A stretch of DNA of 64,000 nucleotides from a virus, in the IMG/VR virus record IMGVR_UViG_3300036766_002288, positions 96,001 through 160,000 of that record, one strand, 5' to 3'. Position 1 is the first letter of the stretch; the number at the start of each line of letters is the position of its first letter. Made by a program: the position numbers and the translations under genes. Below, in pieces: positions 2 through 62,271 of this stretch. The notes beneath the pieces were generated by a model. The model saw only the letters and a program-made list of their open reading frames with translations, was not told where the DNA came from and searched no databases.

Positions 2-166
2 CTTTATTGGCAGGGTGAATTCAATGTAGGAATAGGACACAAAAGCACAGCAAAAATGGGCATGTTCGTTAATTTAGACAAATCTCAAGGTATTGTATTG
101 GATGAAATCGGACATGAACTTAGTATGGTTGGCATCTATGAAAATAAAGATACTATAATTGGCTAA
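2..166 (+). CDS. Partial hypothetical protein (3' end; runs off the window start)
   Basis: Open frame from position 2 (LYWQGEFNVG...KDTIIG) to TAA at 164-166, converging on the next gene. Confidence 0.55.
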   Translation, partial: LYWQGEFNVGIGHKSTAKMGMFVNLDKSQGIVLDEIGHELSMVGIYENKDTIIG

Positions 167-702
167 ACTAAAGAAGGTGCGGCCAAAGGAATGATAGTCG
201 CTGGCCAAACTTTGTTTTGGTCATGCTGCACGCCTAATAAGATTGAAATAAGTGGCACGTTGTCATGTGCAGCGATCATCCTGCTCTTATTTTGAATCAA
301 AGTGTTGCTGTAGACTGGTCCTACCGCTTTTGAGTGAGCAATAGTGATATGTGGTGTGCCGTTTGTAATAGGCAACGCAGGGCTTGAAGAGACAGTGACA
401 GCGGCACAATTGTCGTCAGAAAAGAATGATAAAGTATATAATTCCACTTTTTGGCCAAAAAACTGATGTAGTGTCTGAATATCAGCGGCTTGAGGTTTGA
501 ATTTGACGGTCATGTGATGGGCACGAAATGTCCATCCCATAGGGATATTCCTGCCATTTTGTTCCATGAATAGCTTTCTAGCCAAACCTATCAGGTGATT
601 CTGGCTTATCTTTTCCAAAACACAACCAATGTAAGCAAACTGTCTTGCGTCAGGCAGTGCCATTTGTTGCTCCATTTCATTGAACCAAAGTGAGAACTCC
701 AT
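163..702 (-). CDS. 2H phosphoesterase (cyclic phosphodiesterase-like)
   Basis: Two HxT motifs (HHMTVKF, PHITIA). Start moved to ATG 702 (MEFSLWFNE), directly behind ACTATATA. Confidence 0.7.
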   Translation of the reverse strand: MEFSLWFNEMEQQMALPDARQFAYIGCVLEKISQNHLIGLARKLFMEQNGRNIPMGWTFRAHHMTVKFKPQAADIQTLHQFFGQKVELYTLSFFSDDNCAAVTVSSSPALPITNGTPHITIAHSKAVGPVYSNTLIQNKSRMIAAHDNVPLISILLGVQHDQNKVWPATIIPLAAPSLV

Positions 703-750
703 TGCAATATATAGTAATGTCTTTATAATGTTTGTAAAGGAGAATTTTCC

Positions 751-969
751 ATGAATCCCTCTCTCAACAATATTAGGGTACGGCATAGTATGCTATTATC
801 ATTGTATGTTTCTATGAAAAACTACCTTGAATGTCTTGAACATGGCTATATGGGGGAAATAAGCCCTTACGAAAAAACATTGGCAGATGAAATGAAAGAT
901 ACTCTATTAAAAATGGAAAGCACTTGCTTAGATTATTTTAAAGAAGAAGGGAGAATTATAGGAGAATGA
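751..969 (+). CDS. Hypothetical protein
   Basis: 72-aa ORF with ATGA coupling to the next gene. Confidence 0.5.
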   Translation: MNPSLNNIRVRHSMLLSLYVSMKNYLECLEHGYMGEISPYEKTLADEMKDTLLKMESTCLDYFKEEGRIIGE

Positions 970-1466
970 TTAATTTATTACCATTTTTTGCAGGAATATC
1001 TTCGTTATTGATGTTTCCTTTGGATTTTGAACTTAAAACAGAACTTAAAAATGACCAATGTTCAATAGAGACTGTCTGTAAAGTCACAAAAGCTGGAGAC
1101 ACTTACACTTATCTTTACAGTATTAGAAATACTGGTAATACCACAGTAAAGGTTAAATGGGATGCACTAGATAAAGCCTTGAATATGGGAAGAGATATTG
1201 ATATGATGTGGGAAGTGGAACCTGGGGAGAATTTGAATTTCATACTTGAGCATCCAGACCCACCTCAAGAAGTAGGTGGTAGAGTTCAATCCCATTCATT
1301 ACTTAGTAAGAAAGATTTAGACAAAATGGTAAAGGGAATGCAGGCACTCCCAAACGGAATCAAAGTTGATATTCCAGTCTCTAAGCTCTATCAGATAGAC
1401 ACACGTTACGCTAGTGGTATTTTACCAAAAGCGTTCTTAACCCCAGCATTTATGCCACGCAGATAA
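966..1466 (+). CDS. Putative exported protein
   Basis: Hydrophobic N-terminus (MINLLPFFAGISSLLMF) followed by a beta-rich segment (YTYLYSIRNTG); GGAG RBS. Confidence 0.5.
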   Translation: MINLLPFFAGISSLLMFPLDFELKTELKNDQCSIETVCKVTKAGDTYTYLYSIRNTGNTTVKVKWDALDKALNMGRDIDMMWEVEPGENLNFILEHPDPPQEVGGRVQSHSLLSKKDLDKMVKGMQALPNGIKVDIPVSKLYQIDTRYASGILPKAFLTPAFMPRR

Positions 1467-1481
1467 AAAAGGAAAAAAATT

Positions 1482-1784
1482 ATGCCTTACGTTAGATTAG
1501 CTGCAAGAAATCGTCTCGATAATGGCCTACACGCCATGTTACAATACATGCCCGCTGACGCAAGCGAACTAAATTATGTCTTAACCAGGATTTGTGATAC
1601 ATTCATAAATACCAAAGGTAAGAATTATCAAAATCTCAATGAGGTTATTGGCGCGATTGAATGTATGAAGCAAGAACTTTACAGGCGTGTAATTGCTCCC
1701 TACGAAAATACAAAGATCGACGAAAATGGCGATGTATACGGCATGGTAACATCTAAGCCCAAACCACCAGAAATTCCGAGGTAA
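1482..1784 (+). CDS. Conserved phage hypothetical protein
   Basis: MPYV...ELNY...ELYRRVIAPYENTKIDENGDVY pattern, recognised as a common small phage family. Confidence 0.6.
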   Translation: MPYVRLAARNRLDNGLHAMLQYMPADASELNYVLTRICDTFINTKGKNYQNLNEVIGAIECMKQELYRRVIAPYENTKIDENGDVYGMVTSKPKPPEIPR

Positions 1785-1787
1785 ATT

Positions 1788-2390: not shown

Positions 2391-2626
2391 TAAATGATGA
2401 AGAAATTTTGCGTAAGCTATTAGCCCTTGGTGAGCGGTTTACGACAGAGCAGTTGGATGAAGTGTTTTTAGAAATCTGGGATAATACCTTCGATGCTAGG
2501 CTACATTGTTCTTCATTAAGAAAACGTGGCTACATTGATTATTTGTCTGATGATGAGTGGAGATTGGAGATTACTGAATTTGAAATTAATGAAAAGTTTG
2601 GCAGCAACGGTAAACAGGATAATTGA
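2387..2626 (+). CDS. Hypothetical protein
   Basis: 79-aa ORF coupled to the previous gene. Confidence 0.45.
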   Translation: MINDEEILRKLLALGERFTTEQLDEVFLEIWDNTFDARLHCSSLRKRGYIDYLSDDEWRLEITEFEINEKFGSNGKQDN

Positions 2627-3011
2627 AGAATTGAGTTTCTTTTTCTTGAGAGTGCATAATTACGCACTTCCAAAAATGTGTATGGGTATGCAAGTAATTA
2701 AGTGGCCACAATCCTTTATAAGTAAAACAAACAATACGTTTAAAACATTTATATCAACCCTTCAATGTACTGGTCAAGAACGCCGCGACAATCAAATTGA
2801 AATATCAAAATACGACCCATTCATAGTAAGAGATTTTGAAAAAGTTTATGCCGTTTATGGTGGTGCAGTTTTAGAAGAATGTAACTATTTAGAATTCATG
2901 AGTGAAGAGATTCTAAAAAAAAGTGGTTGGATACATCCGACTTTAGCAACCAAGATAAGAAGATTAACAGCAACCGAAAGGAAATCATATGAGAAAAGTA
3001 GTAGTATTTAG
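2526..3011 (+). CDS. Hypothetical protein (true start probably later)
   Basis: Open frame; its 5' part overlaps the previous ORF. Confidence 0.45.
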   Translation: MATLIICLMMSGDWRLLNLKLMKSLAATVNRIIEELSFFFLRVHNYALPKMCMGMQVIKWPQSFISKTNNTFKTFISTLQCTGQERRDNQIEISKYDPFIVRDFEKVYAVYGGAVLEECNYLEFMSEEILKKSGWIHPTLATKIRRLTATERKSYEKSSSI

Positions 3012-3720
3012 TGGTGCAGGGTTATCAGCGGAATCTGGGATTCCAACATTCAGGGATTCGAATGGGCTATGGGAGAACCACAAAGTAGAAGATGTAGCCC
3101 ATCCTAGCGGTTGGGCAAAAGATAAAAACTTAGTCCTAGAGTTCTACCGTCAGCGTTTTGAAAGTGTAAAAAACTGTGCCCCTAATGAAGCCCACAAAAG
3201 TATTGCTCGACTTCAAGACAAATTTGAAGTTGTAAACATAACACAGAATATTGATGATTTGCTTGAGAGAGCAGGTTGTAAAGAAGTTCGTCATTTGCAT
3301 GGCAGTATTAATAAGCGAAAGTGCGAATGGCATAAGTCCTGTTGTATGTTAGATGGTGATTCAAGATATATTTGCAACTATGCAACTGACCATACAGAAG
3401 CTGTTAAACTAGGAGATTTGTGCCCGAAATGTAGTGGTCAATTACGTCCAGATGTGGTATGGTTTGATGAGCCAGTCGCCTTTGAATTTGAGACTATGCA
3501 CGAGCTAGTTCGTGAAGTCAAATACAACAATGGAGTGTTCATATGCATAGGAACATCCGCTCAAGTCCATCCCGCTGCCGCATTGATCCCATTATTTGTC
3601 CAAGTGGCTAATAAGTATATAATTGATTTGAATGCCAGACCAATTGGTAACTACACATTACTAAAAGGCAGTGCTAGCGAGAAGATGAAAGAACTGGCTG
3701 ATAAACTTTTGGAGGTATAG
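2989..3720 (+). CDS. cobB: Sir2/CobB-family NAD-dependent deacylase
   Basis: GAGLSAESGIPTFR, TQNIDDLLERAG, LHGS, Zn-binding Cys, RPDVVWF, IGTS motifs. Confidence 0.9.
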   Translation: MRKVVVFSGAGLSAESGIPTFRDSNGLWENHKVEDVAHPSGWAKDKNLVLEFYRQRFESVKNCAPNEAHKSIARLQDKFEVVNITQNIDDLLERAGCKEVRHLHGSINKRKCEWHKSCCMLDGDSRYICNYATDHTEAVKLGDLCPKCSGQLRPDVVWFDEPVAFEFETMHELVREVKYNNGVFICIGTSAQVHPAAALIPLFVQVANKYIIDLNARPIGNYTLLKGSASEKMKELADKLLEV

Positions 3721-3926
3721 TGGGAGTTATATTTTGCGATGGTTGGTCAATACCAATTTCAGAATCAGCCGAAGAAAAAGCCGATGCGAAAAAAAGAGAA
3801 ATTGAATTCCTGGCAAAATGGTATAAGCCTGGCGGCGGTTGTTTTATTGAGACTCTTATGCAACATGGTTGTCAATGTGGCGAGTTTCAAAAAGAGATGA
3901 GATGGAAAAATGGAAATAATAATTAA
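3720..3926 (+). CDS. Hypothetical protein
   Basis: 68-aa ORF in a tightly packed run. Confidence 0.4.
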   Translation: MGVIFCDGWSIPISESAEEKADAKKREIEFLAKWYKPGGGCFIETLMQHGCQCGEFQKEMRWKNGNNN

Positions 3927-4101
3927 AAAACGAAAGCCACTTCCTAAGCATTGGTATAGGCAACATATCGCGGAATGTCCAGTTTGTGGTGCTGACCATA
4001 GTTCCAGAGAAAGGGTATTTGGAGAAAAGCCAAAAGACCCTAAAGAAATATATAGCTACTCTGTGGCCTATGACTGGTGTGATATTGATGGAAGATATTA
4101 A
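3910..4101 (+). CDS. Small hypothetical protein with CxxC
   Basis: CPVCG motif; GAGATGG upstream. Confidence 0.45.
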   Translation: MEIIIKKRKPLPKHWYRQHIAECPVCGADHSSRERVFGEKPKDPKEIYSYSVAYDWCDIDGRY

Positions 4102-4102
4102 A

Positions 4103-4546
4103 ATGAGTATCTCAGACTATTATCCAGAAGAAAAAGCGGTCGGGCCACATAAAAAATTCATGATGTTTTTCACCGACAATCTAGTACCTTGGGTCGGTGG
4201 TAATGTTGAATTTGGTGTGGATTTCTTCGGTTGTCTCATACTTTGTTCGACCTATAAACACATGAAGAGAGTGTTGTCAGGTCGGCCAGAAGTTGAAGAA
4301 TTTAGACAAAAATGGAATAAAGAAATCACTCCAGTAGAGTTAGATGCATTTATCAATTGGGTACTAAGACCAGATTCAGAAGAGGGTTTAAGTGCTTATC
4401 AAAACTTATTTGCGGCAATTGTTTTAGCCCTGGAACCTTTCTATAAGACAGATGAATATGCAAAATTATACATAGACAACTCAGCAAAAACAGGTGGTAT
4501 TGTAGGATTCCTAGCTAGGGAAATACAAGAGAGAAACTTGGCGTAA
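4103..4546 (+). CDS. Hypothetical protein
   Basis: Start moved to ATG 4103 (MSISDYY), just after the previous stop. Confidence 0.55.
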   Translation: MSISDYYPEEKAVGPHKKFMMFFTDNLVPWVGGNVEFGVDFFGCLILCSTYKHMKRVLSGRPEVEEFRQKWNKEITPVELDAFINWVLRPDSEEGLSAYQNLFAAIVLALEPFYKTDEYAKLYIDNSAKTGGIVGFLAREIQERNLA

Positions 4547-4550
4547 TTTT

Positions 4551-4571
4551 TCTATGGATTTAGAAACCACC
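4551..4571 (+). pseudogene. Remnant 5' fragment of the downstream exonuclease gene
   Basis: TCT ATG GAT TTA GAA ACC ACC = SMDLETT versus SVDIETT at 5416-5436. Confidence 0.55.
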
Positions 4572-4588
4572 TTACTCTCTAATAAGAT

Positions 4589-5407
4589 ATGAGATACAGA
4601 TTAACCGATGAACAAAATTTAGATATTGCAAAGGCTTTCAGTAATGGGGACTCGATAGATGTGTTAGCCACAAAATACAATAAACATAAAGCTTCTATTC
4701 GAAGAATACTATTTAAATTTGATATATTTTCTAAAAACACTAAAAGCAAAACTAAGGGTGGTTTTTCATATAAAGATAAGCTAAAAATTATAAATTTATA
4801 TACCATTGAAAAAAGAGGCAAATCTTACATAGGTAAACTTTTTAATGTGTCAGATTTCAATATCAATTATTGGCTCAAAAAGTGGGGTGTAAAGTCCATT
4901 TCCCGTTCTGATATTTCTACTAAAATACGTGAGATTTATGGTCCTACTAAAGGATTTGGAGGTCGTAAGCATAAAGTAGATTCGAAAATTAAAATATCAA
5001 ATAGTCTTTATGCTTCCTGGGAAGACGATAGAGAGCCAATGATAGGTAAATCACGTACTTATGATACTATAATTGGTAAAGTATTGGGGACGTGGGAAGT
5101 GGCATATTTACAAAAGTTGAAAACCAACAATGAACAATTACCTACACTTTGTCATAAAAGATATAAAACTCCTTATGGAAGTTATAAACCTGACTTTGAG
5201 TTCAACGATAGGTTTATAGAAATTAAAAGCGAGTTCACTTTAAAAGTGGCAAAAGGTAAATATAAAAGTCATGGTAAATATTCGAATAATCAGTTTAAAA
5301 AAATAAAATATGTCAATGACAATATTAAGAAGATTGAAATTATAGTGCTGGACAAGGATGAAGCTATTTCCTATTTTAAAATGGCAAAAAAAGGAATATT
5401 GAAATGA
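4589..5407 (+). mobile_element. Free-standing homing endonuclease (HTH repeats, NUMOD3-like motif, PD-(D/E)xK nuclease)
   Basis: Repeated HTH-like segments, GFGGRKHKVDSKIKIS, C-terminal YKPDFEFNDRFIEIKS; Lys-rich. Confidence 0.7.
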
Positions 5408-6009
5408 AATACGTGAGCGTAGACATAGAAACAACAGGTTTAAATCATGAGAAATGCACCATACTTGAATTCGCAGCCGTAGTTGATGACTTAAATTTGC
5501 AAGAGCCAATTGAAAAATTACCTAAGTTTCAGACTTATGTAAGACAAGAATACTACAGTGGTGAACCATATGCTCTTGCGATGCACTGTGAAAAATTTCA
5601 AAAGATATCTAATTGGCGTGCAAATGGAATTGACGTTTGTTATCCTGAGACACTCATCAAGAAATTTCATACTTTCTTGATAACATTCGGTTATCAAGAA
5701 ACTGGCAGAACTCATTCATCTTTAAAAGATGGTTATATTAAAATAAATGTTGCTGGTAAAAACTTCGCTAATTTTGACAACAGATTTATAGAGAAACTAC
5801 CAGATTATGATAAAATGATTAAAGTTGGACATAGGATTTTAGACCCTGTAATGCTCTATTTTGATCCTAAGAAAGATATTGACCATCTGCCAAGTATGGC
5901 TGAATGCATGGAACGTGCAGGAATCAGTGGTGAAGTTCCACATTCAGCATTAGAAGATGCTGTTTTGGTTGTTAGATTACTAAGACATAAATTTCCTATT
6001 AAAGAGTAA
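5404..6009 (+). CDS. DEDDh 3'-5' exonuclease (DnaQ/oligoribonuclease-like)
   Basis: DIETTG, GKNFANFD, HSALEDA motifs. Confidence 0.85.
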   Translation: MKYVSVDIETTGLNHEKCTILEFAAVVDDLNLQEPIEKLPKFQTYVRQEYYSGEPYALAMHCEKFQKISNWRANGIDVCYPETLIKKFHTFLITFGYQETGRTHSSLKDGYIKINVAGKNFANFDNRFIEKLPDYDKMIKVGHRILDPVMLYFDPKKDIDHLPSMAECMERAGISGEVPHSALEDAVLVVRLLRHKFPIKE

Positions 6010-6016
6010 ATAACAC

Positions 6017-7306
6017 ATGATTACAGACCGTTGGCATGGTATTACTCGTCCTTATAATATAGATCAGATCAGAAGACTCCAAGGTTCTTTTGTCGAAGAA
6101 CACAGCTTGGCAACATTGACTGCCGAAAAACTTTGGGAAAGACTAAATGATAAGCCTTACCTTCATGCATTAGGAGCGGTTACAGGTAATCAGGCCATGC
6201 AAATGGCTAAAGCTGGCTTACCTGCGATCTATTGTTCTGGCTGGCAAGTTGCTGCTGATAATAATGATTCAATGCAAATGTATCCTGACCAATCCTTATA
6301 CGCTGTAAATAGCGTCCCTAATTTAGTTCGCAGAATCAATAATTGTTTAAGACGAGCCGACCAAATTCAGTGGATGGAAATATGTGCAGGGGGCAAATGC
6401 ACCACTGATTATTGGGTTCCTATTGTCGCTGACTGTGAAGCAGGCTTCGGTGGTCCACTCAACGCTTTTGAATTAACAAAAGCAATGATTGAGGCAGGTG
6501 CAGCTGGAATTCATTTTGAAGACCAGTTATCTTCAGCTAAGAAGTGTGGCCATCTAGGTGGTAAGGTTCTGATTCCAGCGTCCCACTTTATCAAGACCCT
6601 GATTGCGGCACGGTTAGCTGCCGATGTTTGCAATGTCCCAACAGTTATCATTGCGCGAACAGATGCAGATAGTGCTAAATTACTAACTTCAGACATAGAT
6701 GCATTAGATGCACCTTTCATAAAGCGTAAAGATGTTTCACTTGTGGGTAATTTTGGTGATACATTAACAAAGTGGGAAGTGTGTAGGACTTCCGAAGGAT
6801 ACTATGAAATAACTGGTGGTATAAACATGGCCATAGCTAGAGGATTGGCCTACGCACCATATGCTGATCTATTGTGGTGTGAAACCTCTCATCCTGACAT
6901 AAATGAAGCAAAAACTTTCGCAGAGGCTATTCATGCCAAATATCCTGGTAAGTTACTGGCTTATAATTGCTCACCCAGCTTCAACTGGAAAAAGCATCTA
7001 AATGAGAGACAGATTGCTGATTTCCAGAAGGAATTGGGACAAATGGGCTATAAATTCCAATTTATTACTCTCGCAGGCTTCCATGCTCTAAATCAAAGTA
7101 TGTTTGATTTAGCACTAGAATATGGCAAGAGAGATATGGAAGCTTACGTAGACTTGCAAGAAAGAGAATTTGATCTACAACACTTTGGTTATACAGCAAC
7201 CAAACACCAGAGAGAGGTCGGTGTTGGTTACTTTGATTTAGTTGCAGAAACTCTTGGCTCCCAATTAACCGCTTTGGACGAATCTACTGAGAAGGAGCAA
7301 TTCTAA
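6017..7306 (+). CDS. aceA: Isocitrate lyase
   Basis: [10 protein letters not shown] catalytic motif, [40 protein letters not shown]; 429 aa. Confidence 0.95.
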
Positions 7307-7602
7307 TGATAGAAGTATTCGCAGATGGCAAAACATTGTCCAACGGAATTTATGTTCAAAGAAAAATTTATTGGGCGGACTGTGAAGTGGCAGGTTGGCC
7401 ACTCGACAAGCCTTGGTTGGCCACAATTAACGTTGGTTCATGGCATTATTCCTCTAGAGGAAACGCAACCAAAGAGGAAGCAATAAAAGATTTATTCGAA
7501 TATATGCAGGAACAAATTAAAGCTCATAAAGACCAGTTAGAATTCCAAAATAATAGGCTCAAAGAACTAACCGAATTTCTAGAGAAGTATAATACTAATT
7601 AG
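7306..7602 (+). CDS. Hypothetical protein
   Basis: 98-aa ORF coupled (TAATG) to aceA. Confidence 0.5.
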   Translation: MIEVFADGKTLSNGIYVQRKIYWADCEVAGWPLDKPWLATINVGSWHYSSRGNATKEEAIKDLFEYMQEQIKAHKDQLEFQNNRLKELTEFLEKYNTN

Positions 7603-7786
7603 GGTCTGAATCCGCCAACCTTTTCAAAGCCTTGCGAAGCATTTTTGCTATCCATTGAGCGTGTTTCTTGGAATCCCTTTCAAACGATTGAAGGGTAAAT
7701 CCTTGGTGGTCAATTGAAAATTCTACTGTCCAAGCCTTCTCAGAGTGCCAAGCAGGTTTGACTCTTACCTTCCATTTCGATTTCAT
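7595..7786 (-). CDS. Hypothetical protein
   Basis: 63-aa ORF coupled to the end of fbp. Confidence 0.45.
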   Translation of the reverse strand: MKSKWKVRVKPAWHSEKAWTVEFSIDHQGFTLQSFERDSKKHAQWIAKMLRKALKRLADSDPN

Positions 7787-8910
7787 GACGCATCCCTAAT
7801 TTTAAATTCCTTCTCCAAGGAATCAAGAGCATCTACAATACCAGTGTACGCCAATTCTGCCTTAGATGCCATGTTAATTCCAAAGAAGCCCTGTCTCCTG
7901 AACTCTTCTGCCTTCTGAGCAATCTTCAGTCTGGTTGCATCCCATACTGTGTTAGCAAAAATATCGACATGTTCAGAGAGTTTGCCCTGCCCATTTAATG
8001 AAAATGCTATACAGGACACAATAGGCAAACAATATGCCCCAGCTACTGGTGAATTGATTGGCATGGGCATTATAGGCATATTATGCGACCCGCGAGCATC
8101 ACCAGTTACATAATGTCCTAATAAATAAGGCTCAATAACCTCTTCTGGTGCTGGGAACATGCCTTGTGTCCTAATAATGGCCACAGGATCGTCCTTGCCA
8201 GTGTATTTGCCAGCAATATTGTGCAATCTAGTTGCGGAAACCGCAACTGTTTGCTCATCTGGCTTATATCTAGAATGAATTTGTTCGACACCGAATTTAT
8301 CAATATCCCTGAGAAGGACTGCAACATCCCATATGCGTTCTGGAACATCCAACTCAATTAACTTATCCCCATCCTTATTATCCATGTCCATAATGGTGAA
8401 CTTAAATCCCTTCTTCATTTTGGGATTCAATAATAGACCACCATCATGCATTGGATCACAAAAAACTTGATAAAGTGGCAGATTATAAGCCCCTGGCCCA
8501 CATTTATCAGCAGCAAATACTAAGAAAGACTCAGCAGGCCGCTCTTTGGTCAGAAGCTCAAATTCAATCTCAGCCACCGCTGGCCCTGCGCCTCTTACGT
8601 TACCTGAAGGTGCGTCCACAAGAAGGTCTTGGCCAGCCCCATACAAACCTTCAACACTTGCTATTTTGGTGGCGTCTTTGAATGTTTGCCATGCAAAATT
8701 ATGGACTTCTGTATTTAATTTACCCTTATCATGTACCATTATTAAACATATATCATCGCCCGTATGAGTGACTCTGCCATCAATCAGGAGTTTATTCAGC
8801 ATGGCGGTACCAATTGCAGAATGACATTGGTTCATCATCATGCTAGATGGCTCAGTATGCCCGCCAATAGAGCCAACGTCAGCTTTGATTACAGAGATAG
8901 TGACTTTCAT
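7783..8910 (-). CDS. fbp: Class V fructose-1,6-bisphosphate aldolase/phosphatase
   Basis: SVIKADVGSIGGH, GDDI, GQDLL..SGN..G.GP, ADK..PGA.N, GKYTGKDDP (Schiff-base Lys), RGSH. Confidence 0.92.
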   Translation of the reverse strand: MKVTISVIKADVGSIGGHTEPSSMMMNQCHSAIGTAMLNKLLIDGRVTHTGDDICLIMVHDKGKLNTEVHNFAWQTFKDATKIASVEGLYGAGQDLLVDAPSGNVRGAGPAVAEIEFELLTKERPAESFLVFAADKCGPGAYNLPLYQVFCDPMHDGGLLLNPKMKKGFKFTIMDMDNKDGDKLIELDVPERIWDVAVLLRDIDKFGVEQIHSRYKPDEQTVAVSATRLHNIAGKYTGKDDPVAIIRTQGMFPAPEEVIEPYLLGHYVTGDARGSHNMPIMPMPINSPVAGAYCLPIVSCIAFSLNGQGKLSEHVDIFANTVWDATRLKIAQKAEEFRRQGFFGINMASKAELAYTGIVDALDSLEKEFKIRDAS

Positions 8911-8964: not shown

Positions 8965-9684
8965 TCAACTGGAAATTGTAATTTTCATCGCATCTTTATT
9001 GTAGTTAGCTCGTTTTTTCATACTGGCCAAGCCTGGAGTCTCAGTAGTAATGTAAGGAATGGCATATTCAAGATAAAGCTTATCCTCAATAGTGTTCTTA
9101 GCTGATTCAGGATCAGGAATTAGTCCTTCATAGGTTTTATCTCCCCAACACTCGGATTTCCCAAATATTGGAAAATACTTTCTGGCCAATTCCCTTAAAT
9201 CCTCAGCCACTTGCTTGTGTTCAGTATAATAACAGTACCAACTCTTTATCCTTGGGTCTTCGTGTAAAGTGTGTAATAGAGAAATATTCTCATGCTTAAT
9301 ACCTTCCCAGATGATTTTACAATCCCCTTTTAATTCATCATCCATAAAATGGCGATTCATATCAAAACCATCGGCACAAAATCTCTGATTTCTCTTAAAT
9401 CCATAAGGATTGGCCAAAGGGATTATAACTACTTTCTTGCTTTTTGGGATGTGAACTTTGTTTTTAATGAATTCTAGAACGCCATAAGGACCACCCTTTT
9501 CATTGCCATGTAGCCCTGCGATAAAACATATAGTCTTTTTGGCGTATGGATTCAGAACTAGCTTGAACACACTTTCTCCGTCACTTTCACCTATCTCGGT
9601 AAGCTGGCCATAGCCCTTGCACGCTTCAACAAGGTCTTTGTTAAATTTGAATGTTTCTTTTTTATTAACAAACTCATTGAACAT
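8965..9684 (-). CDS. M14-family zinc carboxypeptidase (succinylglutamate desuccinylase/MpaA-like)
   Basis: AGLHGNE, NPYG, R...G.DMNR.F, LHED, ETP. Confidence 0.8.
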   Translation of the reverse strand: MFNEFVNKKETFKFNKDLVEACKGYGQLTEIGESDGESVFKLVLNPYAKKTICFIAGLHGNEKGGPYGVLEFIKNKVHIPKSKKVVIIPLANPYGFKRNQRFCADGFDMNRHFMDDELKGDCKIIWEGIKHENISLLHTLHEDPRIKSWYCYYTEHKQVAEDLRELARKYFPIFGKSECWGDKTYEGLIPDPESAKNTIEDKLYLEYAIPYITTETPGLASMKKRANYNKDAMKITISS

Positions 9685-9688: not shown

Positions 9689-9711
9689 TGTATTTAGCCG
9701 CCCTAAATACA
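9689..9711. promoter_or_regulatory. Inverted pair of CTAAATAC motifs (putative divergent late promoters)
   Basis: TGTATTTAG-CCGCC-CTAAATACA between divergent genes; the minus-strand copy lies just upstream of ATG 9684. Confidence 0.5.
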
Positions 9712-9714
9712 ATA

Positions 9715-9743
9715 TGGACAAAAGTTCGGGAGTTTGGTAGAAT
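9715..9743 (+). promoter_or_regulatory. Sigma70-type promoter upstream of uvsW
   Basis: TGGACA-17 nt-TAGAAT. Confidence 0.5.
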
Positions 9744-9749
9744 TCTGAT

Positions 9750-16875: not shown

Positions 16876-17169
16876 TTATTCTGGTGGGTATTTCCCAATA
16901 GGTCCACTTTTTAATTCTGTTGCGTCCATAGAACGATATTTGCCACCTGCCAGTCCAGAAACAAATATAGCAGTTTCTTTCCTATCAAGAAATCGCCCCT
17001 TGTTAGTTAGAAAACCACTGATCCACTCTTTACCATATTCACTATCTGGAATTACACTAGAAAGATGAACAGGCCCAGATGGATAAATCTTCCCGTCAAT
17101 ACTAAAGGCCGCTTGAACAATTTTCTCAATATCGGCACTTTCTATCCATTGTTTAAATCTGATTATCAT
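16876..17169 (-). CDS. Hypothetical protein with CTS-like N-terminus
   Basis: MIIRFKQWIE start; GFLTNKGRFLDRKE motif. Confidence 0.55.
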   Translation of the reverse strand: MIIRFKQWIESADIEKIVQAAFSIDGKIYPSGPVHLSSVIPDSEYGKEWISGFLTNKGRFLDRKETAIFVSGLAGGKYRSMDATELKSGPIGKYPPE

Positions 17170-17171: not shown

Positions 17172-17561
17172 TTACACCACACTACCAGGCCCCTGTATAC
17201 CTTGTGCTTGTTGTCTTTGCATATTGTTCATAGGATGTGGAACCTGGCCTTGACCAGGCGGTAATTGAGCAGGAGTGCTATCACTCGTATCTTGTTGGTC
17301 AAAATCCCCAAAATTTATCTGATTAATAAGGTTTGTTAAACTGTCTTGCTTGTGCGACATTGCCCAACTTGTCAATTCTTGCTTCTTCTCATCGTCTATT
17401 GGAAGGCTACTAAGAGCATCTGATAACCTTTGTGGCGGGATTTCATCTATTCCTATATTTTTGTCAAGGGCCTCCTTAGTCAAACCTAGTCTTTCTAGCA
17501 ATTTAGATATAAACTCTCTTTTTTGCCTTAATTCTTCCATCCATACCATAAACGTCTTCAT
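17172..17561 (-). CDS. Hypothetical protein with CTS-like N-terminus and Q/P-rich tail
   Basis: MKTFMVWMEE start; AGTATATA directly upstream. Confidence 0.6.
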   Translation of the reverse strand: MKTFMVWMEELRQKREFISKLLERLGLTKEALDKNIGIDEIPPQRLSDALSSLPIDDEKKQELTSWAMSHKQDSLTNLINQINFGDFDQQDTSDSTPAQLPPGQGQVPHPMNNMQRQQAQGIQGPGSVV

Positions 17562-17579
17562 GTTAATATATACTTAGTA

Positions 17580-18371
17580 ATGCAATATAAATTTAAAAAT
17601 TGGCTAGAGTATGCGGACTTCGGCTTAGACGTAACTAAAACCCCAAAAGAGAAATCCCCTGTCGAGCAGTATGATACGCCTATTGATAAATTAAATGTCA
17701 ATTACATCATAAACTCTTTAAAAAACCATAAATTCGGTGAAAAGTCCGCAAAATTAAACGACTTTTTTGGAGAACAGCAATGGGGTGATACTGATGGTGC
17801 TTTGCAGGTAGCATTTAGTCCATTTGGCGGCATGAGAGCCACATTAAGAAAACTTATTCACGACCAAGAAGGGCATCCGACTTGGATTTGCAAGAAAGTA
17901 ATAGAGGTTAGACACCTTTTTGATGAGCATCCAGATAGTCTAAGTTTCCTATTACAAGATAATTTAAACGAAATGGATCATCAAGGAATCGACGCAACTT
18001 CAAACGATTACAAAGGACTTGAGAGATTGGTTTTGAACTTAGCAAGTGTCCTTCGTAGAAAAACCACACAGAAAATATTCATCTACGAAGGGATTCGTAT
18101 ATTGAAAGAAAACGAACAATACTTGATTCATTTTGGCTGCACAGGGTATGGTAGACAACGACCAGGCCAAAAAAGATTGGATCAGTTTGCAATACATTGC
18201 ACTTACCACCCAAAGACTGGAACTATTTTAATTACTGGAACTGAATTAGGTGATAAATTGGATCAGTATCGTTGGATTTATGATCCTTCTACTTTTATGG
18301 AATATTTTGTGCCGACTCAACATGAAGATGAAATTACAAAGGCAGTCCTTGCAATGTTAAATTCTTATTGA
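17580..18371 (+). CDS. Hypothetical protein with CTS-like N-terminus
   Basis: MQYKFKNWLE start; 263 aa. Confidence 0.65.
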   Translation: MQYKFKNWLEYADFGLDVTKTPKEKSPVEQYDTPIDKLNVNYIINSLKNHKFGEKSAKLNDFFGEQQWGDTDGALQVAFSPFGGMRATLRKLIHDQEGHPTWICKKVIEVRHLFDEHPDSLSFLLQDNLNEMDHQGIDATSNDYKGLERLVLNLASVLRRKTTQKIFIYEGIRILKENEQYLIHFGCTGYGRQRPGQKRLDQFAIHCTYHPKTGTILITGTELGDKLDQYRWIYDPSTFMEYFVPTQHEDEITKAVLAMLNSY

Positions 18372-39106: not shown

Positions 39107-39351
39107 TGTTTTACGCTATCAAGAATAAAGAAGGTAAGTATTTGGTGTTAGATAGTCGTTTTATCCATTGGCTTGAAATGCCTAATGCTCAATTTTTTAC
39201 CACCAAAGAAGAAGCTCAAAAAGTGATTGATTATTTTTTTAAAGAACAGGAATACAATCCATTGGAATACGATATGCCTTTGGAAATTTGTGGTTTCGAG
39301 GTGAACTGGAAAGAGATTGAAAGAGAACTTTATGTTGTCACACCAAAGTAA
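39088..39351 (+). CDS. Hypothetical protein
   Basis: 87-aa ORF. Confidence 0.45.
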   Translation: MDLEGLMFYAIKNKEGKYLVLDSRFIHWLEMPNAQFFTTKEEAQKVIDYFFKEQEYNPLEYDMPLEICGFEVNWKEIERELYVVTPK

Positions 39352-39688
39352 GGGCTGTTTTCAATATAGAGTTTAGTTGACCAGGGAAGGCTTCGCCTGC
39401 TTTGAAATATTGAAGCCAGGATTGAAGATATTTATCTAGATTTTTGTTTCCGACTTCGACTTTACTAAGGTCGCCAGTGTGTGGGTCAACTAGTTGAGAA
39501 ACATACATAAAGGCATTTTGTGGCTCTTGCATTGCTTTGGCTAACTTGTCTTTTATAGTTTGCTTCAGTTGTTGTGTTGATTGTATTGATTGTGCAAATT
39601 GTGACTGACCTGTGGTAGGTTGGTATGCCCCAGGTAGGTTTTGAGGACCATTACCTTCAATACGCTCAAGGAATTCTCTGAAAGTCAT
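39338..39688 (-). CDS. Hypothetical protein with CTS-like N-terminus
   Basis: MTFREFLERIE start; CATATATA directly upstream. Confidence 0.6.
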   Translation of the reverse strand: MTFREFLERIEGNGPQNLPGAYQPTTGQSQFAQSIQSTQQLKQTIKDKLAKAMQEPQNAFMYVSQLVDPHTGDLSKVEVGNKNLDKYLQSWLQYFKAGEAFPGQLNSILKTALTLV

Positions 39689-39834
39689 GCTTTATATATG
39701 AATTAAAATATGATATGTGACGTAATAATATACTCATTATTTTTCTTTCTCTCTCATAGGGCCATTTATGGAGATGGGGCTAGGGAAGTGGATAATGGTA
39801 AGATTTTATAGCAATTTATTTATAATTTAAAGTC

Positions 39835-53179: not shown

Positions 53180-53196
53180 GTTAGCAGCGGGTTAGG

Positions 53197-53235
53197 ACAA
53201 CAGAGAGTGTGAAATATCACTCTCTGTTGTTTTTT
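53197..53235. terminator. Terminator at a convergent gene junction
   Basis: ACAACAGAGAGTG/CACTCTCTGTTGT 13-bp stem plus T-run. Confidence 0.75.
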
Positions 53236-53882
53236 ACACGATGTTTTAGTTTTCCTATCCCGACTTCGGTTATGACGATGAATTCCCAGCCTCTAGTTTG
53301 ACAATAAAGGGTTGCAGCGTGCCATTTAGCTTCGTTGAGTGGCAGCATAGTCTGGTTTGCTGGTTTGATTTCCCACACTTCTACATGTCCGTCGTTGAAT
53401 TTGAGTAGTATATCTGGGAAGTAATGGTGTGCTTCACCTTTGTACAAATAAGGAATTCCTTGCTTGAATGGTTGGGCTTCATAGGCTATGACTTCTGGGA
53501 TTACTTCAATACATTCCAGCACTTCACATTCATAGCTAGATTCATATTCAAATTCTTTACCACCGTTTTTCAAGCTGACAAAGTGACCTTTTCTAAAAGT
53601 TGGTTTTCTTGATTTCTTACCACCTTTTTTACCAATGTCTTTCCAAACTATTGCTCTGTTGGGGCCTTTTTGCATTGGCATTGAGTCTTGTGGGTGTTTG
53701 GCTTTGAAATGTAGCATTACATCTCTTACAGGTGCGCCGCAACGGGCCAATGGGCAGACAACATACTCTCTTCCTTCTTCGTGTTTTTCCAATATATGGG
53801 CGCGAAATGTTTCAAAATCTCCATATTCGTGGCCACAAACAAAACATTGCCATTTTCTTTTGCCGTCGTCTTTTCCGAACAT
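53217..53882 (-). CDS. C2H2 zinc-finger protein with gp4/TnsA-like PD-(D/E)xK nuclease domain
   Basis: CFVC..HILEKH and CPLARC..HFKAKH; YESSYE, IPY, HYFPD, EIKP, NEAKWHAA, FIVITE. Confidence 0.75.
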   Translation of the reverse strand: MFGKDDGKRKWQCFVCGHEYGDFETFRAHILEKHEEGREYVVCPLARCGAPVRDVMLHFKAKHPQDSMPMQKGPNRAIVWKDIGKKGGKKSRKPTFRKGHFVSLKNGGKEFEYESSYECEVLECIEVIPEVIAYEAQPFKQGIPYLYKGEAHHYFPDILLKFNDGHVEVWEIKPANQTMLPLNEAKWHAATLYCQTRGWEFIVITEVGIGKLKHRVKNNRE

Positions 53883-53884
53883 TT

Positions 53885-54232
53885 TTATCCTTTGGACATA
53901 AGTTGTTTTTCTATCTGATTTCTGTCTAAAACTTTAATTAAAGGCAAATCTTTTGCCGTGAATATATTCTCCGTAGTTTGTCCAGTAAGGGCATTCATAA
54001 GGTCATGTGCCATGAAGTTGGCTTCATCTTCCCAATTATCTGGCATGTCTTCATCGCCTTCTGGATTCTTCATTTTGGCAAAAACAATCCTACTTTCTTC
54101 AGGGGCACCAAATAGCTTATTGTTTTTGGTGAAAAACATTATTAAATTTTGGTTGTCTAGAAGATTTTTTATCTTATTTTTCTTCTGAGCATCCTTATTT
54201 TCTTGGAAGATTTTAAAGTTGTAATTCTTCAT
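53885..54232 (-). CDS. Hypothetical protein with CTS-like N-terminus
   Basis: MKNYNFKIFQE start. Confidence 0.55.
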   Translation of the reverse strand: MKNYNFKIFQENKDAQKKNKIKNLLDNQNLIMFFTKNNKLFGAPEESRIVFAKMKNPEGDEDMPDNWEDEANFMAHDLMNALTGQTTENIFTAKDLPLIKVLDRNQIEKQLMSKG

Positions 54233-54264
54233 GTTTTTCCTCTATCATTCATTATATACTGTGT

Positions 54265-54684
54265 ATGGTTTTTAGTTTTAAAAGATTTGTGGAAGAAAAA
54301 AAGCCTGACAAGCCATTAAACCACATAGATGCGATGGATCAGGAGCTAGGTATAGACCGAGCTTCTTTACCTAAAGATTTTTCGACTGGTTGGTTGGAAT
54401 TACCAGAAGAAGGCTTATATTTCAATCAGGCAATTTGGCAATTATTACCTGTTGGTGAACATGATATGTTTGCTAGGATTAAGTATTTCAGGGCTAATAA
54501 CTCTAATCCTAATTTTGTCAGGTGTTATACTAAAGGACAGGATGGTAAGCTTCAGCCTTATATGGGTGAAATAGATGGCTCAGTACACTTAATAAGTATT
54601 GGAAGATTAGCAAAGGCATTGGGAATGCCTTTCCAGGCATCAGCAGCGGCAGCCACAGGTGGCGGCGCAGGAGGAATAACATGA
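54265..54684 (+). CDS. Hypothetical protein with CTS-like N-terminus
   Basis: MVFSFKRFVEE start; TTATATAC upstream. Confidence 0.6.
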   Translation: MVFSFKRFVEEKKPDKPLNHIDAMDQELGIDRASLPKDFSTGWLELPEEGLYFNQAIWQLLPVGEHDMFARIKYFRANNSNPNFVRCYTKGQDGKLQPYMGEIDGSVHLISIGRLAKALGMPFQASAAAATGGGAGGIT

Positions 54685-54848
54685 AATTTAAGGATTGGTA
54701 TATTAAAGAAGTAGGGACTTGTACGGGCAGTATTGCTCATTTTTCTTTGCCTTTATTTGGGGGTTCAGTAGATCGTACTTGGCCACCACTTATTGGATAT
54801 GATGGCAAAGATAAAAAACACAAGAAAAAGAAGAAAAAGAAGGAGTAA
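54681..54848 (+). CDS. 55-aa protein with CTS-like N-terminus and poly-Lys tail (not in the ORF track)
   Basis: GGAGG RBS; MKFKDWYIKE...KDKKHKKKKKKKE. Confidence 0.6.
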   Translation: MKFKDWYIKEVGTCTGSIAHFSLPLFGGSVDRTWPPLIGYDGKDKKHKKKKKKKE

Positions 54849-54856
54849 ATAGACTT

Positions 54857-55129
54857 ATGAAGACATTGAAAGAATTCCTTGATGATGCAAGGCAAAGTTT
54901 TGCTTCTCCACAGGCAGAGAAGTATTCTCCTCAAACTCTAAGCCCGATCCATTTTTCCGCACAATTCCCAGGTGAAGCTGCGGCATACAAAGCCGCATTT
55001 GAAGAATTTTTAAAATATTACGGGAAGGATAGCCGAAGGGCAGACCATTTTGGCAGTATGTTGCATGATGCCCTTGTCAAAAGAAACACAGCAATGTTGC
55101 ATATGTGGTATAATATTCACAAGAATTAA
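54857..55129 (+). CDS. Hypothetical protein with CTS-like N-terminus
   Basis: MKTLKEFLDD start; TAAATA at 54846. Confidence 0.6.
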   Translation: MKTLKEFLDDARQSFASPQAEKYSPQTLSPIHFSAQFPGEAAAYKAAFEEFLKYYGKDSRRADHFGSMLHDALVKRNTAMLHMWYNIHKN

Positions 55130-55192
55130 CTTGTTTTAATCTTGTGAATTTGCTATTGTTCATGAACTTTCCATTCAATTCAAGAGGGTCAA

Positions 55193-57007: not shown

Positions 57008-57008
57008 A

Positions 57009-57668
57009 ATGATGTTAATTAGTGATAGGTCTGTAGATGGTAAACTTATAGAGGATTTGACGCCTTCTAGTGAAAGAAGAGTATTGGCAAAGTGCGACAA
57101 ATGTGGGATTGTAAAGGAGTTAATATATGCTAATTACTCTCGGTCACAGGTTAAGAATGGATATAATGGACTGACATATTGCAGGAAGTGTGTAACTCAA
57201 TTCAATGGTATAAAACGTCGTGGTAAAGTGCCCCATAATAAAGGCAAGAAACTAAAAGCCGAACAAAAAGGTGTAAATCATCCAAGTTGGAAAGGTGGAA
57301 AGTATGTTGATGGCAACGGATATGTAATGGTTTACATTGGTGATAATAGTTCAGAAATTGGGTGGAACTCCTACAGGAAAGAGCATACAATTGTTGTTGA
57401 AGACTTTTTGAATAGGAAGTTGGCCGTAGATGAGGTGATTCACCATATTGATGGTGATAAAACAGAAAACCAAATAGAAAATTTATGGCTGACAGATGGG
57501 GTTGGGCATAGAAAAGCACATAATTCTTTGCAGAATATTGGGTATGTTCTTTACAAAAAAGGCATAATAGGTTTTGATAAAACTCAAGGTTTTTATTTTT
57601 TGAAGGATAATCATGAGAATTTTGAAAGCTCCGAAGGTTTACTTGGTTGCTCGTCCTCAGATTGTTGA
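57009..57668 (+). mobile_element. HNH homing endonuclease with Zn ribbon
   Basis: CDKC...CRKC, HPSWKGG, EH..V..L.RKL..DEVIHHIDGDKTENQIENL. Confidence 0.85.
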
Positions 57669-58488
57669 AGAAGGTCTAAACGATTTTCTGAAAGATCAAA
57701 AACTTGATTGGCCTACTCCCACCGAAGGTGTGAAGGGTGCAGAGCGTTTGGTGGAGTTATCTGGCCGCTGTTGTTATATGTCTTTTGGAAAAAAGGCAGG
57801 CAGTAAGACCAATAGGAAGTATATCCAAAATCTACTTGGCAGAGAAGAAGATGGAAGTTTTAAGCCAGGCCCTGCACATGGCTCTGTTTGTGAACATCCT
57901 TGTTGGAGTTTCTTAATTGTAGGTGCAGGACGTGGATTTACTCATGAGCAAGTAAGGCATCGGACGGGGTGGGCATATTCACAGCTTAGTACACGTTACT
58001 GTGATTTTGAAAGAGAAGAGGAAGAAGGAACTTGGGAGCCTGGTTTCTGTGTGCCACCTCTTGCTCAATTAAGCGAAGAAGCGACAATCGCATTTAATGA
58101 AAAAATCAAAAAGAGCCAACAGGCTTATTGCGAATTATTAGCTTTAATTGAGAATGATTTAAAAAATAGCAAACTCTTTATGGATACTCTTTCTGGATAT
58201 GAGGAAAGGGAGCGTAAGAGGATGTTAAGGAAAGCTGCCCGTGGTGCAGCGAGAGATATCTTACCGATTGCCACTGAAGCAATCATGGTCATGAGTGCTA
58301 ATGCTAGGGCTATATGGAACTGCATTTATCTTCGTGCTAATGAACATGCGGAAGCGGTGATAAGAGATATATATGTTCAGATAGCAAAGATAATGGAAGC
58401 CGAGATGCCAGCATTATTCAACAATATCAAGTATGAGAAGTGTTGGGACGGTAGTGAAGTTGTTATCATGCCTAGAGATAAATTATAG
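57613..58488 (+). CDS. thyX: Flavin-dependent thymidylate synthase
   Basis: HGSVCEH, RGFTHEQVRHR..YSQLSTRY, ARDILP. Confidence 0.92.
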   Translation: MRILKAPKVYLVARPQIVEEGLNDFLKDQKLDWPTPTEGVKGAERLVELSGRCCYMSFGKKAGSKTNRKYIQNLLGREEDGSFKPGPAHGSVCEHPCWSFLIVGAGRGFTHEQVRHRTGWAYSQLSTRYCDFEREEEEGTWEPGFCVPPLAQLSEEATIAFNEKIKKSQQAYCELLALIENDLKNSKLFMDTLSGYEERERKRMLRKAARGAARDILPIATEAIMVMSANARAIWNCIYLRANEHAEAVIRDIYVQIAKIMEAEMPALFNNIKYEKCWDGSEVVIMPRDKL

Positions 58489-58498
58489 GAGTCAAAAC

Positions 58499-59133: not shown

Positions 59134-59145
59134 CTATTTTAGGGG

Positions 59146-61235: not shown

Positions 61236-61447
61236 TACTCACGTTTCGCGTCTGGACTCATGTTTTCTATTCTGGCATTTTCTTCCAATGTAGATTTAAT
61301 GGAATTGTTTAAGGCATCCGCAAGTTTATCAGTCATGTTTAACCAATAATTTTGATTTTTGCCTTTTGAATCCATAATGGTAAAACAAATCCTTTTACCT
61401 TTTACTTCAAATGAAACGCCAGACAGGTTTGAAGTGTAAATTTTCAT
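61214..61447 (-). CDS. Hypothetical protein
   Basis: 77-aa ORF. Confidence 0.45.
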   Translation of the reverse strand: MKIYTSNLSGVSFEVKGKRICFTIMDSKGKNQNYWLNMTDKLADALNNSIKSTLEENARIENMSPDAKREYYSEFIC

Positions 61448-61456
61448 GTTTTAATC

Positions 61457-61726
61457 TCACTTTTTGTCAGGTGGATGTTGTTGTCTTTTGCCTTGATCTG
61501 GTTGACAACAATCCTTGCAACAGTCTCCCGCACAATCCTTTGGACAATTTTCGCACTTGCATTCCTTGCAACAGCACTTTTTGTGATGTGGGGCTAATTT
61601 GCCATGATGCCAAACCATTGGTGCTTTGCCCGTAATTACATCCCAATGCAAATAGGTCTCCCAGCCCGCCCAAGCTAAAACAACTAAAGCGGCAAGGAAC
61701 GTAACTAAATTATAGATTGCTTTCAT
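61457..61726 (-). CDS. Membrane-anchored protein with a metallothionein-like Cys cluster
   Basis: N-terminal TM; HHKKCCCKECKCENCPKDCAGDCCKDCC; AGGAG RBS. Confidence 0.6.
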   Translation of the reverse strand: MKAIYNLVTFLAALVVLAWAGWETYLHWDVITGKAPMVWHHGKLAPHHKKCCCKECKCENCPKDCAGDCCKDCCQPDQGKRQQHPPDKK

Positions 61727-61771
61727 AAATTGACTCCTGTATAATAGGTTAATATTATTATACGGTGGTCG

Positions 61772-62053
61772 GTGAGAAAATCAAGGAAATACTCAAAACA
61801 ACAATGCATTAAGCTGATAGACAAAGAGTGTCTTTTCTGTGGCGAAAAAGAATATAAGTTGTTAGACTGTCATAGGATATATCCAGGTGAAAAAGGCGGA
61901 ACTTATGTTCAACGTAACACAATTACAAGCTGTGCAAACTGTCACAGAAAGATGCATGGTGGGCTAATCAGGGTTGTTGGGAAATATCTAGGCTCTGATG
62001 GCAGGTGGGTAGTTATCTATTTTGACGAGAATAATGTTGAACATTTGAAATAG
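61772..62053 (+). CDS. Small HNH endonuclease
   Basis: CLFC..DCHRI..GG.Y...N....CANCHRKMH. Confidence 0.75.
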   Translation: MRKSRKYSKQQCIKLIDKECLFCGEKEYKLLDCHRIYPGEKGGTYVQRNTITSCANCHRKMHGGLIRVVGKYLGSDGRWVVIYFDENNVEHLK

Positions 62054-62058
62054 ATAGT

Positions 62059-62271
62059 TTGATGAATTTCCGTGAATTTGCTATGAATGAGTTTTCAATT
62101 AGGGGTATCCAATACCGTCCTAATTATGTTCCTTGCGGGATTCCTAAAAAGGGGAAGAAGGGTGGCCCTGGTAGCATGAATTTAGCGGCAGTAATTAACC
62201 CTTCTAGACCTTACCAACCTACATTCAGAATGGGTAAGTCGCATGTCAAGAGTCAGATTGCGATGAAGTAG
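62059..62271 (+). CDS. Small basic protein with CTS-like N-terminus
   Basis: MMNFREFAMNE start. Confidence 0.55.
   Translation: MMNFREFAMNEFSIRGIQYRPNYVPCGIPKKGKKGGPGSMNLAAVINPSRPYQPTFRMGKSHVKSQIAMK

Follow-up and report, generated by a model that had tools for sequence, protein, structure and literature searches.

A capsid targeting-like N-terminal tag shared by unrelated proteins of a huge phage clade

Results

Tagged genes in the window

The DNA studied here, hereafter called the window, is a 64,000-nucleotide stretch (bases 96001-160000; 38% G+C) of the 187-kb viral contig IMGVR_UViG_3300036766_002288, whose completeness is estimated at 37%. Ten of its predicted proteins, and an eleventh on the borderline, begin with a similar short peptide, hereafter called the tag, and most of their genes follow closely on a TA[TA]ATA box. 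The initial annotation of the window had compared these 11 N-termini with the capsid targeting sequence (CTS) of phage T4 and had proposed that the proteins are packaged in the head and ejected with the DNA; all 11 were found where it had placed them.

We compared the contig (G000) with three relatives, namely G001 (341 kb; median protein identity 59%), G002 (210 kb; 76%) and the complete genome LR756511.1 (W01; 595,163 bp), and refer to them together as the four genomes. The relatives were found through protein similarity after the nucleotide search gave nothing, as a 6-kb segment of the window has no megablast match among GenBank phages. The tagged genes and their boxes are listed below in window coordinates, with scores on a position-specific scoring matrix (PSSM) of the tag, which was trained solely on two sister genomes and used with a cut-off of 8 bits.

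163..702, minus strand: 2H phosphoesterase, 179 residues, MEFSLWFNE; Pfam tRNA_lig_CPD, E = 2.8e-6; PSSM 14.7
708..713, minus strand: TATATA box with a 5-nt spacing to the ATG at 702
8965..9684, minus strand: AstE/AspA-M14-like peptidase, 239 residues, MFNEFVNKKE; Pfam AstE_AspA_cat, E = 3.3e-11, and Peptidase_M14, E = 2.5e-4; phrog_4722; PSSM 11.8
9691..9696, minus strand: TAAATA box with a 6-nt spacing to the ATG at 9684
16876..17169, minus strand: tagged 97-residue protein, MIIRFKQWIE; PSSM 16.1
17172..17561, minus strand: tagged 129-residue protein, MKTFMVWMEE; PSSM 17.2
17567..17572, unstranded: palindromic TATATA box inside the spacer (17562-17579, 18 nt) of a divergent pair of tagged genes, with the two ATGs at distances of 5 and 7 nt; conserved in relatives
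17580..18371, plus strand: tagged 263-residue protein, N-terminus MQYKFKNWLEYADFGLD; 40 homologues
39338..39688, minus strand: tagged 116-residue protein, MTFREFLE; PSSM 9.8; the G002 orthologue starts MTFKEFIE
39693..39698, minus strand: TATATA box with a 4-nt spacing to the ATG at 39688
53885..54232, minus strand: borderline-tagged 115-residue protein, MKNYNFKIFQE; PSSM 5.7, below the cut-off; orthologues keep F-x-x-F
54253..54258, unstranded: palindromic TATATA box shared by the divergent genes starting at 54232 (minus) and 54265 (plus), in a 32-nt spacer (54233-54264)
54265..54684, plus strand: tagged 139-residue protein, MVFSFKRFVEE; PSSM 9.9; tag kept in the G001, G002 and LR756511.1 orthologues
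54681..54848, plus strand: tagged 55-residue protein with a poly-Lys C-terminus, MKFKDWYIKE, normal Shine-Dalgarno (SD) sequence; PSSM 8.2; orthologue in G002
54846..54851, plus strand: TAAATA box with a 5-nt spacing to the ATG at 54857
54857..55129, plus strand: tagged 90-residue protein, MKTLKEFLDD; PSSM 11.1; the G002 orthologue starts MKTLKEYLDD
62062..62271, plus strand: tagged 69-residue basic protein, MNFREFAMNE; PSSM 10.3; the G002 orthologue starts MNFKEFMMNE

The start of the 2H phosphoesterase gene was placed at 702 and not at 786 of a longer open reading frame (ORF), because its orthologues begin at the tag. The ATG of the 69-residue protein lies at 62062, one codon inside an ORF that opens with TTG. 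The borderline gene 53885..54232 has an SD, and its box lies 20 nt upstream. Among the tagged proteins, Pfam and PHROG searches put a name only to the 2H and M14-like enzymes and left the others without a family; the 97-residue protein, with no match in either database, also has no orthologue in the three sister genomes. The lysine-rich mini-protein that the initial annotation had counted as cargo does pass the PSSM (54681..54848).

A short peptide on otherwise unrelated proteins

Across the clade, the tag is 9-10 residues long and has the consensus M-x-x-F-[KR]-[EQKD]-[WF]-[LFMV]-E. The Phe is most often residue 4, followed by Trp or Phe at residue 7 (+3), a hydrophobic residue (h) at 8 (+4) and Glu at 9. 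The acidic residue follows the hydrophobic one within 0-3 residues; in the commonest form, which accounts for 49 of 85 tags, the ending is [WF]-h-E, with Glu directly adjacent.

Between 19 and 21 ORFs of the contig begin with M-x-x-F-[KR]-x-[WF]-h-E. The strict pattern opens 16 of 292 ORF N-termini, against about one expected when residues 2-16 are shuffled, and is found at 0.4% of internal Met positions. A six-frame scan of the contig gave 15 first-ATG matches, versus none in the reversed sequence; there are 25 ATG-anchored matches in total, of which 21 open ORFs of at least 30 codons, and 17 of these 21 are the first start codon of an ORF of at least 44 codons. On the PSSM, 19 N-termini of the contig score 8.2 bits or more and all others 5.7 or less, where chance would yield 0.3-1. 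Ten of its 11 N-termini pass the cut-off, the eleventh being the borderline MKNYNFKIFQE. After start correction, two more proteins pass on the contig: the 2H phosphoesterase and a 1166-residue KOW-array protein encoded outside the window (12.2 bits). The complete relative LR756511.1 has at least 24 tag bearers.

The remainder of each protein is its own. When the tag bearers were compared pairwise with the first 15 residues removed, the best E-value was 0.08, which bears out the earlier statement that their bodies are unrelated. The bearers are hydrophilic, with a negative grand average of hydropathy for all except the 2H enzyme (0.03). Two further tagged proteins, encoded outside the window, consist almost entirely of low-complexity sequence beyond the tag: one at contig positions 64912-65247(-) is Pro/Gly-rich (PPGPPPAPAGG...) and one at 87230-87667(-) is Gln-rich, both compositions being unusual for phage proteins.

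What kind of N-terminal signal could this be? A Sec or Tat signal peptide was considered and rejected: such a peptide needs an h-region of at least seven residues after a basic n-region, which is not what we see, because the tag has three hydrophobic residues, non-adjacent and interspersed with charged ones, and leads into polar linkers on hydrophilic bearers. Unrelated proteins that share an N-terminal leader are also a mark of systems for ribosomally synthesized and post-translationally modified peptides, in which a modifying enzyme, here a radical-SAM enzyme, would recognise the leader. The tagged genes are dispersed, however, and have no constant neighbour, and the Radical_SAM family (PF04055) has no match in any of the four genomes, with the control positive in 14 of 14 genomes. 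Because such an enzyme is missing even from the complete genome, the leader reading fails, and we give it next to no credence.

A promoter-like box before the tagged genes

The initial annotation had also reported a TATATA or TAAATA motif upstream of most of the genes, often without an SD. A TA[TA]ATA box indeed lies within 40 nt of the start in 8 of the 11 genes, and in 7 of them at 4-7 nt before the ATG. The distance between such boxes and the start codon peaks sharply at 4-6 nt, and across the 97 sites of this kind in three genomes nothing is conserved further upstream, which indicates that there is no -35 element. On the contig, about 30 genes have the box 4-7 nt before the ATG and no SD; in three genomes together, 97 genes do. 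On the contig, box and SD are nearly exclusive, occurring together in only 3 of 31 genes, in agreement with the earlier remark. The suggested co-occurrence of tag and box proved strong on the contig (odds ratio 10, p = 3e-6), and in the four genomes the box is found within 35 nt of 38 of the 59 tagged genes versus 312 of the 2322 others.

The box is not confined to tagged genes. It also precedes the tail-sheath module, the gene for a 1527-residue fibre-like protein, the G001 head operon and, in G002, the genes for the capsid protein and the protease. The uvsW-type genes have a sigma70-like -35/-10 pair instead, which never occurs before tagged genes. In the window, the uvsW-like helicase gene (9750-11183) is preceded by TGGACA, 17 nt and TAGAAT (within 9700-9749), an arrangement that all four genomes conserve, with 6 nt between its end and the ATG. 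Judging from the spacing of the uvsW-type promoters, early genes appear to be leaderless as well.

All four genomes encode an ORF of about 180 residues that contains sigma region 2 only (Pfam Sigma70_r2), with the size and architecture of T4 gp55. On the contig it lies outside the window, at 46402-46932(-), where it encodes 176 residues (Sigma70 region 2, E = 4.6e-7) and adjoins the tail-sheath module; its counterparts in G001, G002 and LR756511.1 have 169-192 residues. We regard this ORF as a candidate gp55-like late sigma factor. By analogy, the TA[TA]ATA box may be a T4-style late promoter, and its distance of 4-7 nt from the ATG suggests leaderless or near-leaderless mRNAs.

Selection on the peptide and modularity of the tag

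Since the tags co-occur with the SD-less box arrangement, the N-terminal codons themselves might be a nucleic-acid signal, that is, a translation or transcription element for leaderless mRNAs starting at the ATG after the box. The variation among orthologues speaks against this. Orthologous tags keep F, [WF], h and E while the codons change (TTT/TTC, AAA/AGA/CGT, GAA/GAG); Lys and Arg interchange, and Phe and Trp swap, with TTY replaced by TGG and the residue pattern kept. The first Phe stands at different distances from Met, always in steps of whole codons. Moreover, about half of the tagged genes lack the box, some 20 genes with the box lack the tag, and some tagged genes have a normal SD (the window gene at 54681, and the contig genes at 8410 and 23739). 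Because codons vary while residues are kept, we rejected a nucleotide-level element as highly improbable. The tag survives synonymous and Phe/Trp changes in orthologues, and therefore selection acts on the peptide.

The tag can be followed through families whose bodies have diverged. The orthologues of the 129-residue protein (17172..17561) keep it although their bodies share only 32-37% identity. In the 2H family, 26 of the 27 full-length homologues carry the tag, followed by an acidic stretch, a linker with indels of 0-16 residues, and the conserved domain; the single tagless homologue (P0024) is encoded on a 327-kb contig. The family of the 263-residue protein comprises 40 homologues, on contigs of up to 623 kb, and the tag is its most conserved stretch, with M1, F5, W8, E10, A12 and G15 invariant or nearly so. 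The pattern is not rigid: in the 90-residue protein (54857..55129), Leu replaces the first Phe and Asp replaces Glu.

In the AlphaFold2 model of the 263-residue protein, residues 1-26 have a predicted local distance difference test score of less than 50, and the fold begins near residue 35. As modelled, the body is a two-lobed alpha/beta domain that follows the tag and a variable linker. The model has no Foldseek match at E <=0.001, and its best VIA Z score, 8.7, covers only half of the model and lies within the range of common alpha/beta arrangements. To judge from these alignments and the model, the tag is a detachable module, conserved, unstructured and linker-tethered, which is how a docking signal looks.

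T4-type head machinery in the clade

Does the clade possess the machinery that reads a CTS in T4? A prohead protease of the T4 gp21 type (Peptidase_S77) is encoded in G001, G002 and LR756511.1 (E = 1e-27 to 7e-28). In these sister genomes, the protease gene forms an operon with those of a gp23-like capsid protein and a scaffold candidate, near the genes for a gp20-like portal protein and terminase. The capsid and portal proteins belong to phrog_138 and phrog_213 and match the T4 proteins in phmmer at E = 1e-35. T4 gp20, gp21, gp23 and gp4, used as phmmer queries, match clade proteins directly, and the clade capsid protein matches 2596 records of the T4 superfamily. The scaffold candidate, an acidic helical protein of 313 residues encoded between the protease and capsid genes, is a positional analogue only. 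A second, divergent Peptidase_S77-like ORF lies in LR756511.1 at 242240-243133(-), far from the head operon (297 residues, E = 3.5e-9).

The window itself contains one gene for a head protein:

53217..53882, minus strand: T4 gp4-type head completion (head closure) protein, untagged; phrog_218, E = 6.7e-20; phmmer with T4 gp4, E = 7e-9

This gene lies directly downstream of the borderline-tagged gene 53885-54232, on the same strand, and four tagged genes cluster beside it. Its product has 221 residues, compared with 150 in T4. About 100 residues at its N-terminus form an extension that contains a Cys-x-x-Cys motif (MFGKDDGKRKWQCFVCGH...), possibly a zinc ribbon.

The head proteins of the clade have the following N-termini: M-x-A-N-A-[KR]-F-L-N-E in the capsid protein, M-x-x-x-V-M-L-L-N-E in the protease, and ..L-L-P-E in the scaffold candidate. 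The T4 records begin with MKTYQEFIAE (IPII and IPIII), MKTFKEF (IPI), MAKINELLRE (gp24) and MELITELFDE (Alt). By sequence, the clade's capsid, protease and scaffold N-termini parallel in style the propeptides of T4 head proteins (gp24, Alt and gp21). In the CTS of T4 IPIII, mutational analysis assigned targeting to residues 4 and 7 and processing to residues 8 and 10 (PMC9026906). The conserved positions of the tag, namely the aromatics at 4 and 7, the hydrophobic residue at 8 and Glu at 9-10, are these same determinants, with Glu offset by one residue in most tags. In a T4 control set of 193 ORFs, covering 64% of T4, the strict pattern matches only IPII, IPIII and gp61.1.

The third of these, T4 gp61.1 (54 residues; L047:18966-19130, minus strand), starts with MKTFKEFIKE, a near-perfect CTS that scores 11.5 bits on the huge-phage PSSM, above IPI-III. 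To our knowledge, gp61.1 is not among the listed internal proteins.

Weighing the capsid-address reading

We consider that the tag is the clade's version of the T4 CTS, used at a larger scale, and put the probability of this at roughly 60%. Several observations weigh against it. The window is a replication and metabolism region and not a head-gene region, and the protease and capsid genes are absent from its own contig (37% complete), being known from the sister genomes. Pairwise phmmer comparisons with T4 gp22, gp55 and gp45 gave nothing, even at E = 10. T4 IPII, IPIII and IPI score only 1.7-4.0 bits on the clade PSSM, and the likeness therefore lies in the pattern and not in close sequence. 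The commonest ending, [WF]-h-E (for example W-L-E), differs from the canonical T4 site, L/I-x-E. A few tags end in Asp, which blocks processing in T4 (PMC9026906). The tag of the M14-like enzyme is weak: its orthologues keep F-x-x-F-V, and the acidic end is not conserved. Finally, XacN1 has an S77 protease and a T4-type capsid and shows no tag enrichment (5 matches versus 4 in the control), so that head machinery alone does not predict tags.

Two claims of the initial annotation are qualified by these points. Its comparison with the CTS stands as regards the determinant positions, the presence of T4-type gp20, gp21 and gp23 in the clade and the modularity of the tag; it does not extend to the commonest ending. 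Of its two tagged enzymes, the 2H phosphoesterase scores well above the cut-off, and the M14-like enzyme passes the PSSM but lacks the conserved acidic end.

Among cultured jumbo phages that have been well studied, XacN1, whose capsid is related, stands closest; its published virion proteome was considered as a proxy and dropped, given the lack of tag enrichment.

Could the tag address a different hub? It might serve as a short motif for docking to a phage or host chaperone, to a protease adaptor or degron reader, or to a replication or transcription compartment, in which case the likeness to the CTS would reflect convergence on a generic amphipathic F-x-x-W-L peptide. An unstructured, conserved, linker-tethered tag is what any short linear motif would look like, and the low PSSM scores of the T4 internal proteins, the tagless XacN1 with its similar head machinery, and the departure of Glu from the T4 cleavage rule all fit such a motif. 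Against it, the register of the tag equals the mutationally defined T4 determinants, and the same h-h-x-E style of ending recurs at the capsid and protease N-termini of the clade itself. In addition, the tagged genes share their box with head and tail genes and cluster beside the head completion gene, and no gene for an alternative partner co-occurs with them. We therefore judge a different hub to be unlikely, though it deserves to be kept in mind.

The tag might instead lead to the prohead core on proteins that never reach the host. The bearers would then be disposable components of the core or scaffold, like T4 gp67, gp68 and gp22, which are degraded and expelled before DNA packaging, and not injected effectors. 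Many of them are indeed small, hydrophilic and of low complexity (Pro/Gly-rich, Gln-rich or poly-Lys), and sites of this same kind are where the T4 core proteins are cleaved. The folded or large bearers, however, namely the 2H phosphoesterase, the two-lobed domain of the 263-residue protein and the 1166-residue KOW array, are more like cargo of the Alt and IPI type than like scaffold, and the families are conserved over contigs from many samples. These features make a purely disposable role rather improbable.

Other genes of the window

The replication genes of the window encode a gp32-like single-stranded DNA-binding protein, a UvsX-like recombinase, a DnaB-like helicase and one further helicase. 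An auxiliary metabolic gene cluster, at 2989-8910 and 19257-20942, includes genes for Sir2 (E = 4e-42), isocitrate lyase (4e-96), a class V fructose-1,6-bisphosphate aldolase/phosphatase (2e-139) and a glutamine-dependent NAD synthase (1e-61). ThyX is encoded at 57613-58488.

Discussion

In T4, the CTS is carried by IPI, IPII and IPIII and, like the short propeptides of Alt and gp24, is removed by the prohead protease gp21 (Mullaney and Black 1996; PMC9026906, PMC3012670). The two systems agree in that a peptide of about 10 residues stands at the extreme N-terminus of otherwise unrelated proteins, with the same aromatic, hydrophobic and acidic positions, in phages that have gp20, gp21 and gp23 homologues; in both, the genes are scattered and have boxes of their own, putatively late-type promoters in the clade. 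They differ in scale: the 187-kb contig has about 20 bearers and the complete 595-kb relative no fewer than 24, compared with the five T4 proteins named above (IPI-III, Alt and gp24). In the clade, Trp and Phe are equally common at position 7, position 5 is Lys or Arg, and Glu usually follows the hydrophobic residue directly. The cargo here would include enzymes and a 1166-residue protein, and many of the genes look leaderless. Unlike that of T4, the clade's proposed system is known from sequence.

Giant phages of the phiKZ type likewise load many proteins into the head and cut them after Glu with a gp21-related protease. Their propeptides are long, with tens to hundreds of residues, and we know of no 10-residue tag shared among them. 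Their genes for capsid and scaffold are of another type than those of T4, and their cleavage motif has a small P3 residue. Propeptide-processed head and ejection proteins have been described in phiKZ, 201phi2-1 and SPN3US, where the protease (gp175/gp245) cuts at S/A/G-x-E (PMC5694885, PMC7411985, PMC10052503), and where the parts cut from the N-termini are described as propeptide regions that contain multiple sites of cleavage (PMC9026906).

A more distant parallel is offered by the encapsulins, HK97-fold nanocompartments in which a short, linker-tethered terminal peptide loads unrelated cargo into the shell. The tag resembles these peptides in being short, terminal, linker-tethered and present on unrelated proteins. 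The cargo-loading peptides of encapsulins are mostly C-terminal, bind the shell protein itself and are not removed by a protease, and their cargo is not delivered to another cell. Our literature search found no published report linking capsid targeting sequences to huge phages.

How would a tagged protein reach the host? For the clade, we infer late timing, scaffold docking, cleavage, packaging and ejection, as follows.

Expression: The tagged proteins would be made together with the head and tail proteins, from the -35-less TA[TA]ATA box. With the box often 4-7 nt before the ATG, their mRNAs would carry little or no leader.

Docking and cleavage: The tag, exposed and unstructured, would dock to the scaffolding core of a T4-type prohead through two aromatic residues and an aliphatic one. 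The gp21-type (Peptidase_S77) prohead protease would then clip the tag after Glu.

Ejection: The cargo would stay in the DNA-filled head and leave with the DNA at infection.

By the reading of the sequences that we favour, about 20 tagged proteins are probably packaged in the capsid and enter the host together with the DNA. The cargo encoded in the window would consist of the 2H phosphoesterase, possibly the M14-like peptidase, the poly-Lys mini-protein, and seven proteins without an assigned function; elsewhere on the contig, the 1166-residue KOW-array protein would be added. We see the chances as evenly balanced for the broader proposal, namely that a T4-derived address tag serves a clade of phages with genomes of about 0.6 Mb as a general code for loading, and that at least two dozen unrelated proteins are pre-packed into the capsid, among them an RNA-repair-type 2H phosphoesterase, the 1166-residue KOW-array protein and DNA-coating polycations, so that the injected proteome could be read from sequence.

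If the tag is a capsid address, the proteins delivered in the first seconds of infection could be listed from sequence, even for uncultured phages. This would provide a short list of candidate host-takeover and counter-defence proteins, mostly orphans without a known family, and foreign proteins could be loaded into very large capsids by means of the tag, as a ready-made handle. The T4 loading mechanism would then be old, portable and scalable across the T4 superfamily.

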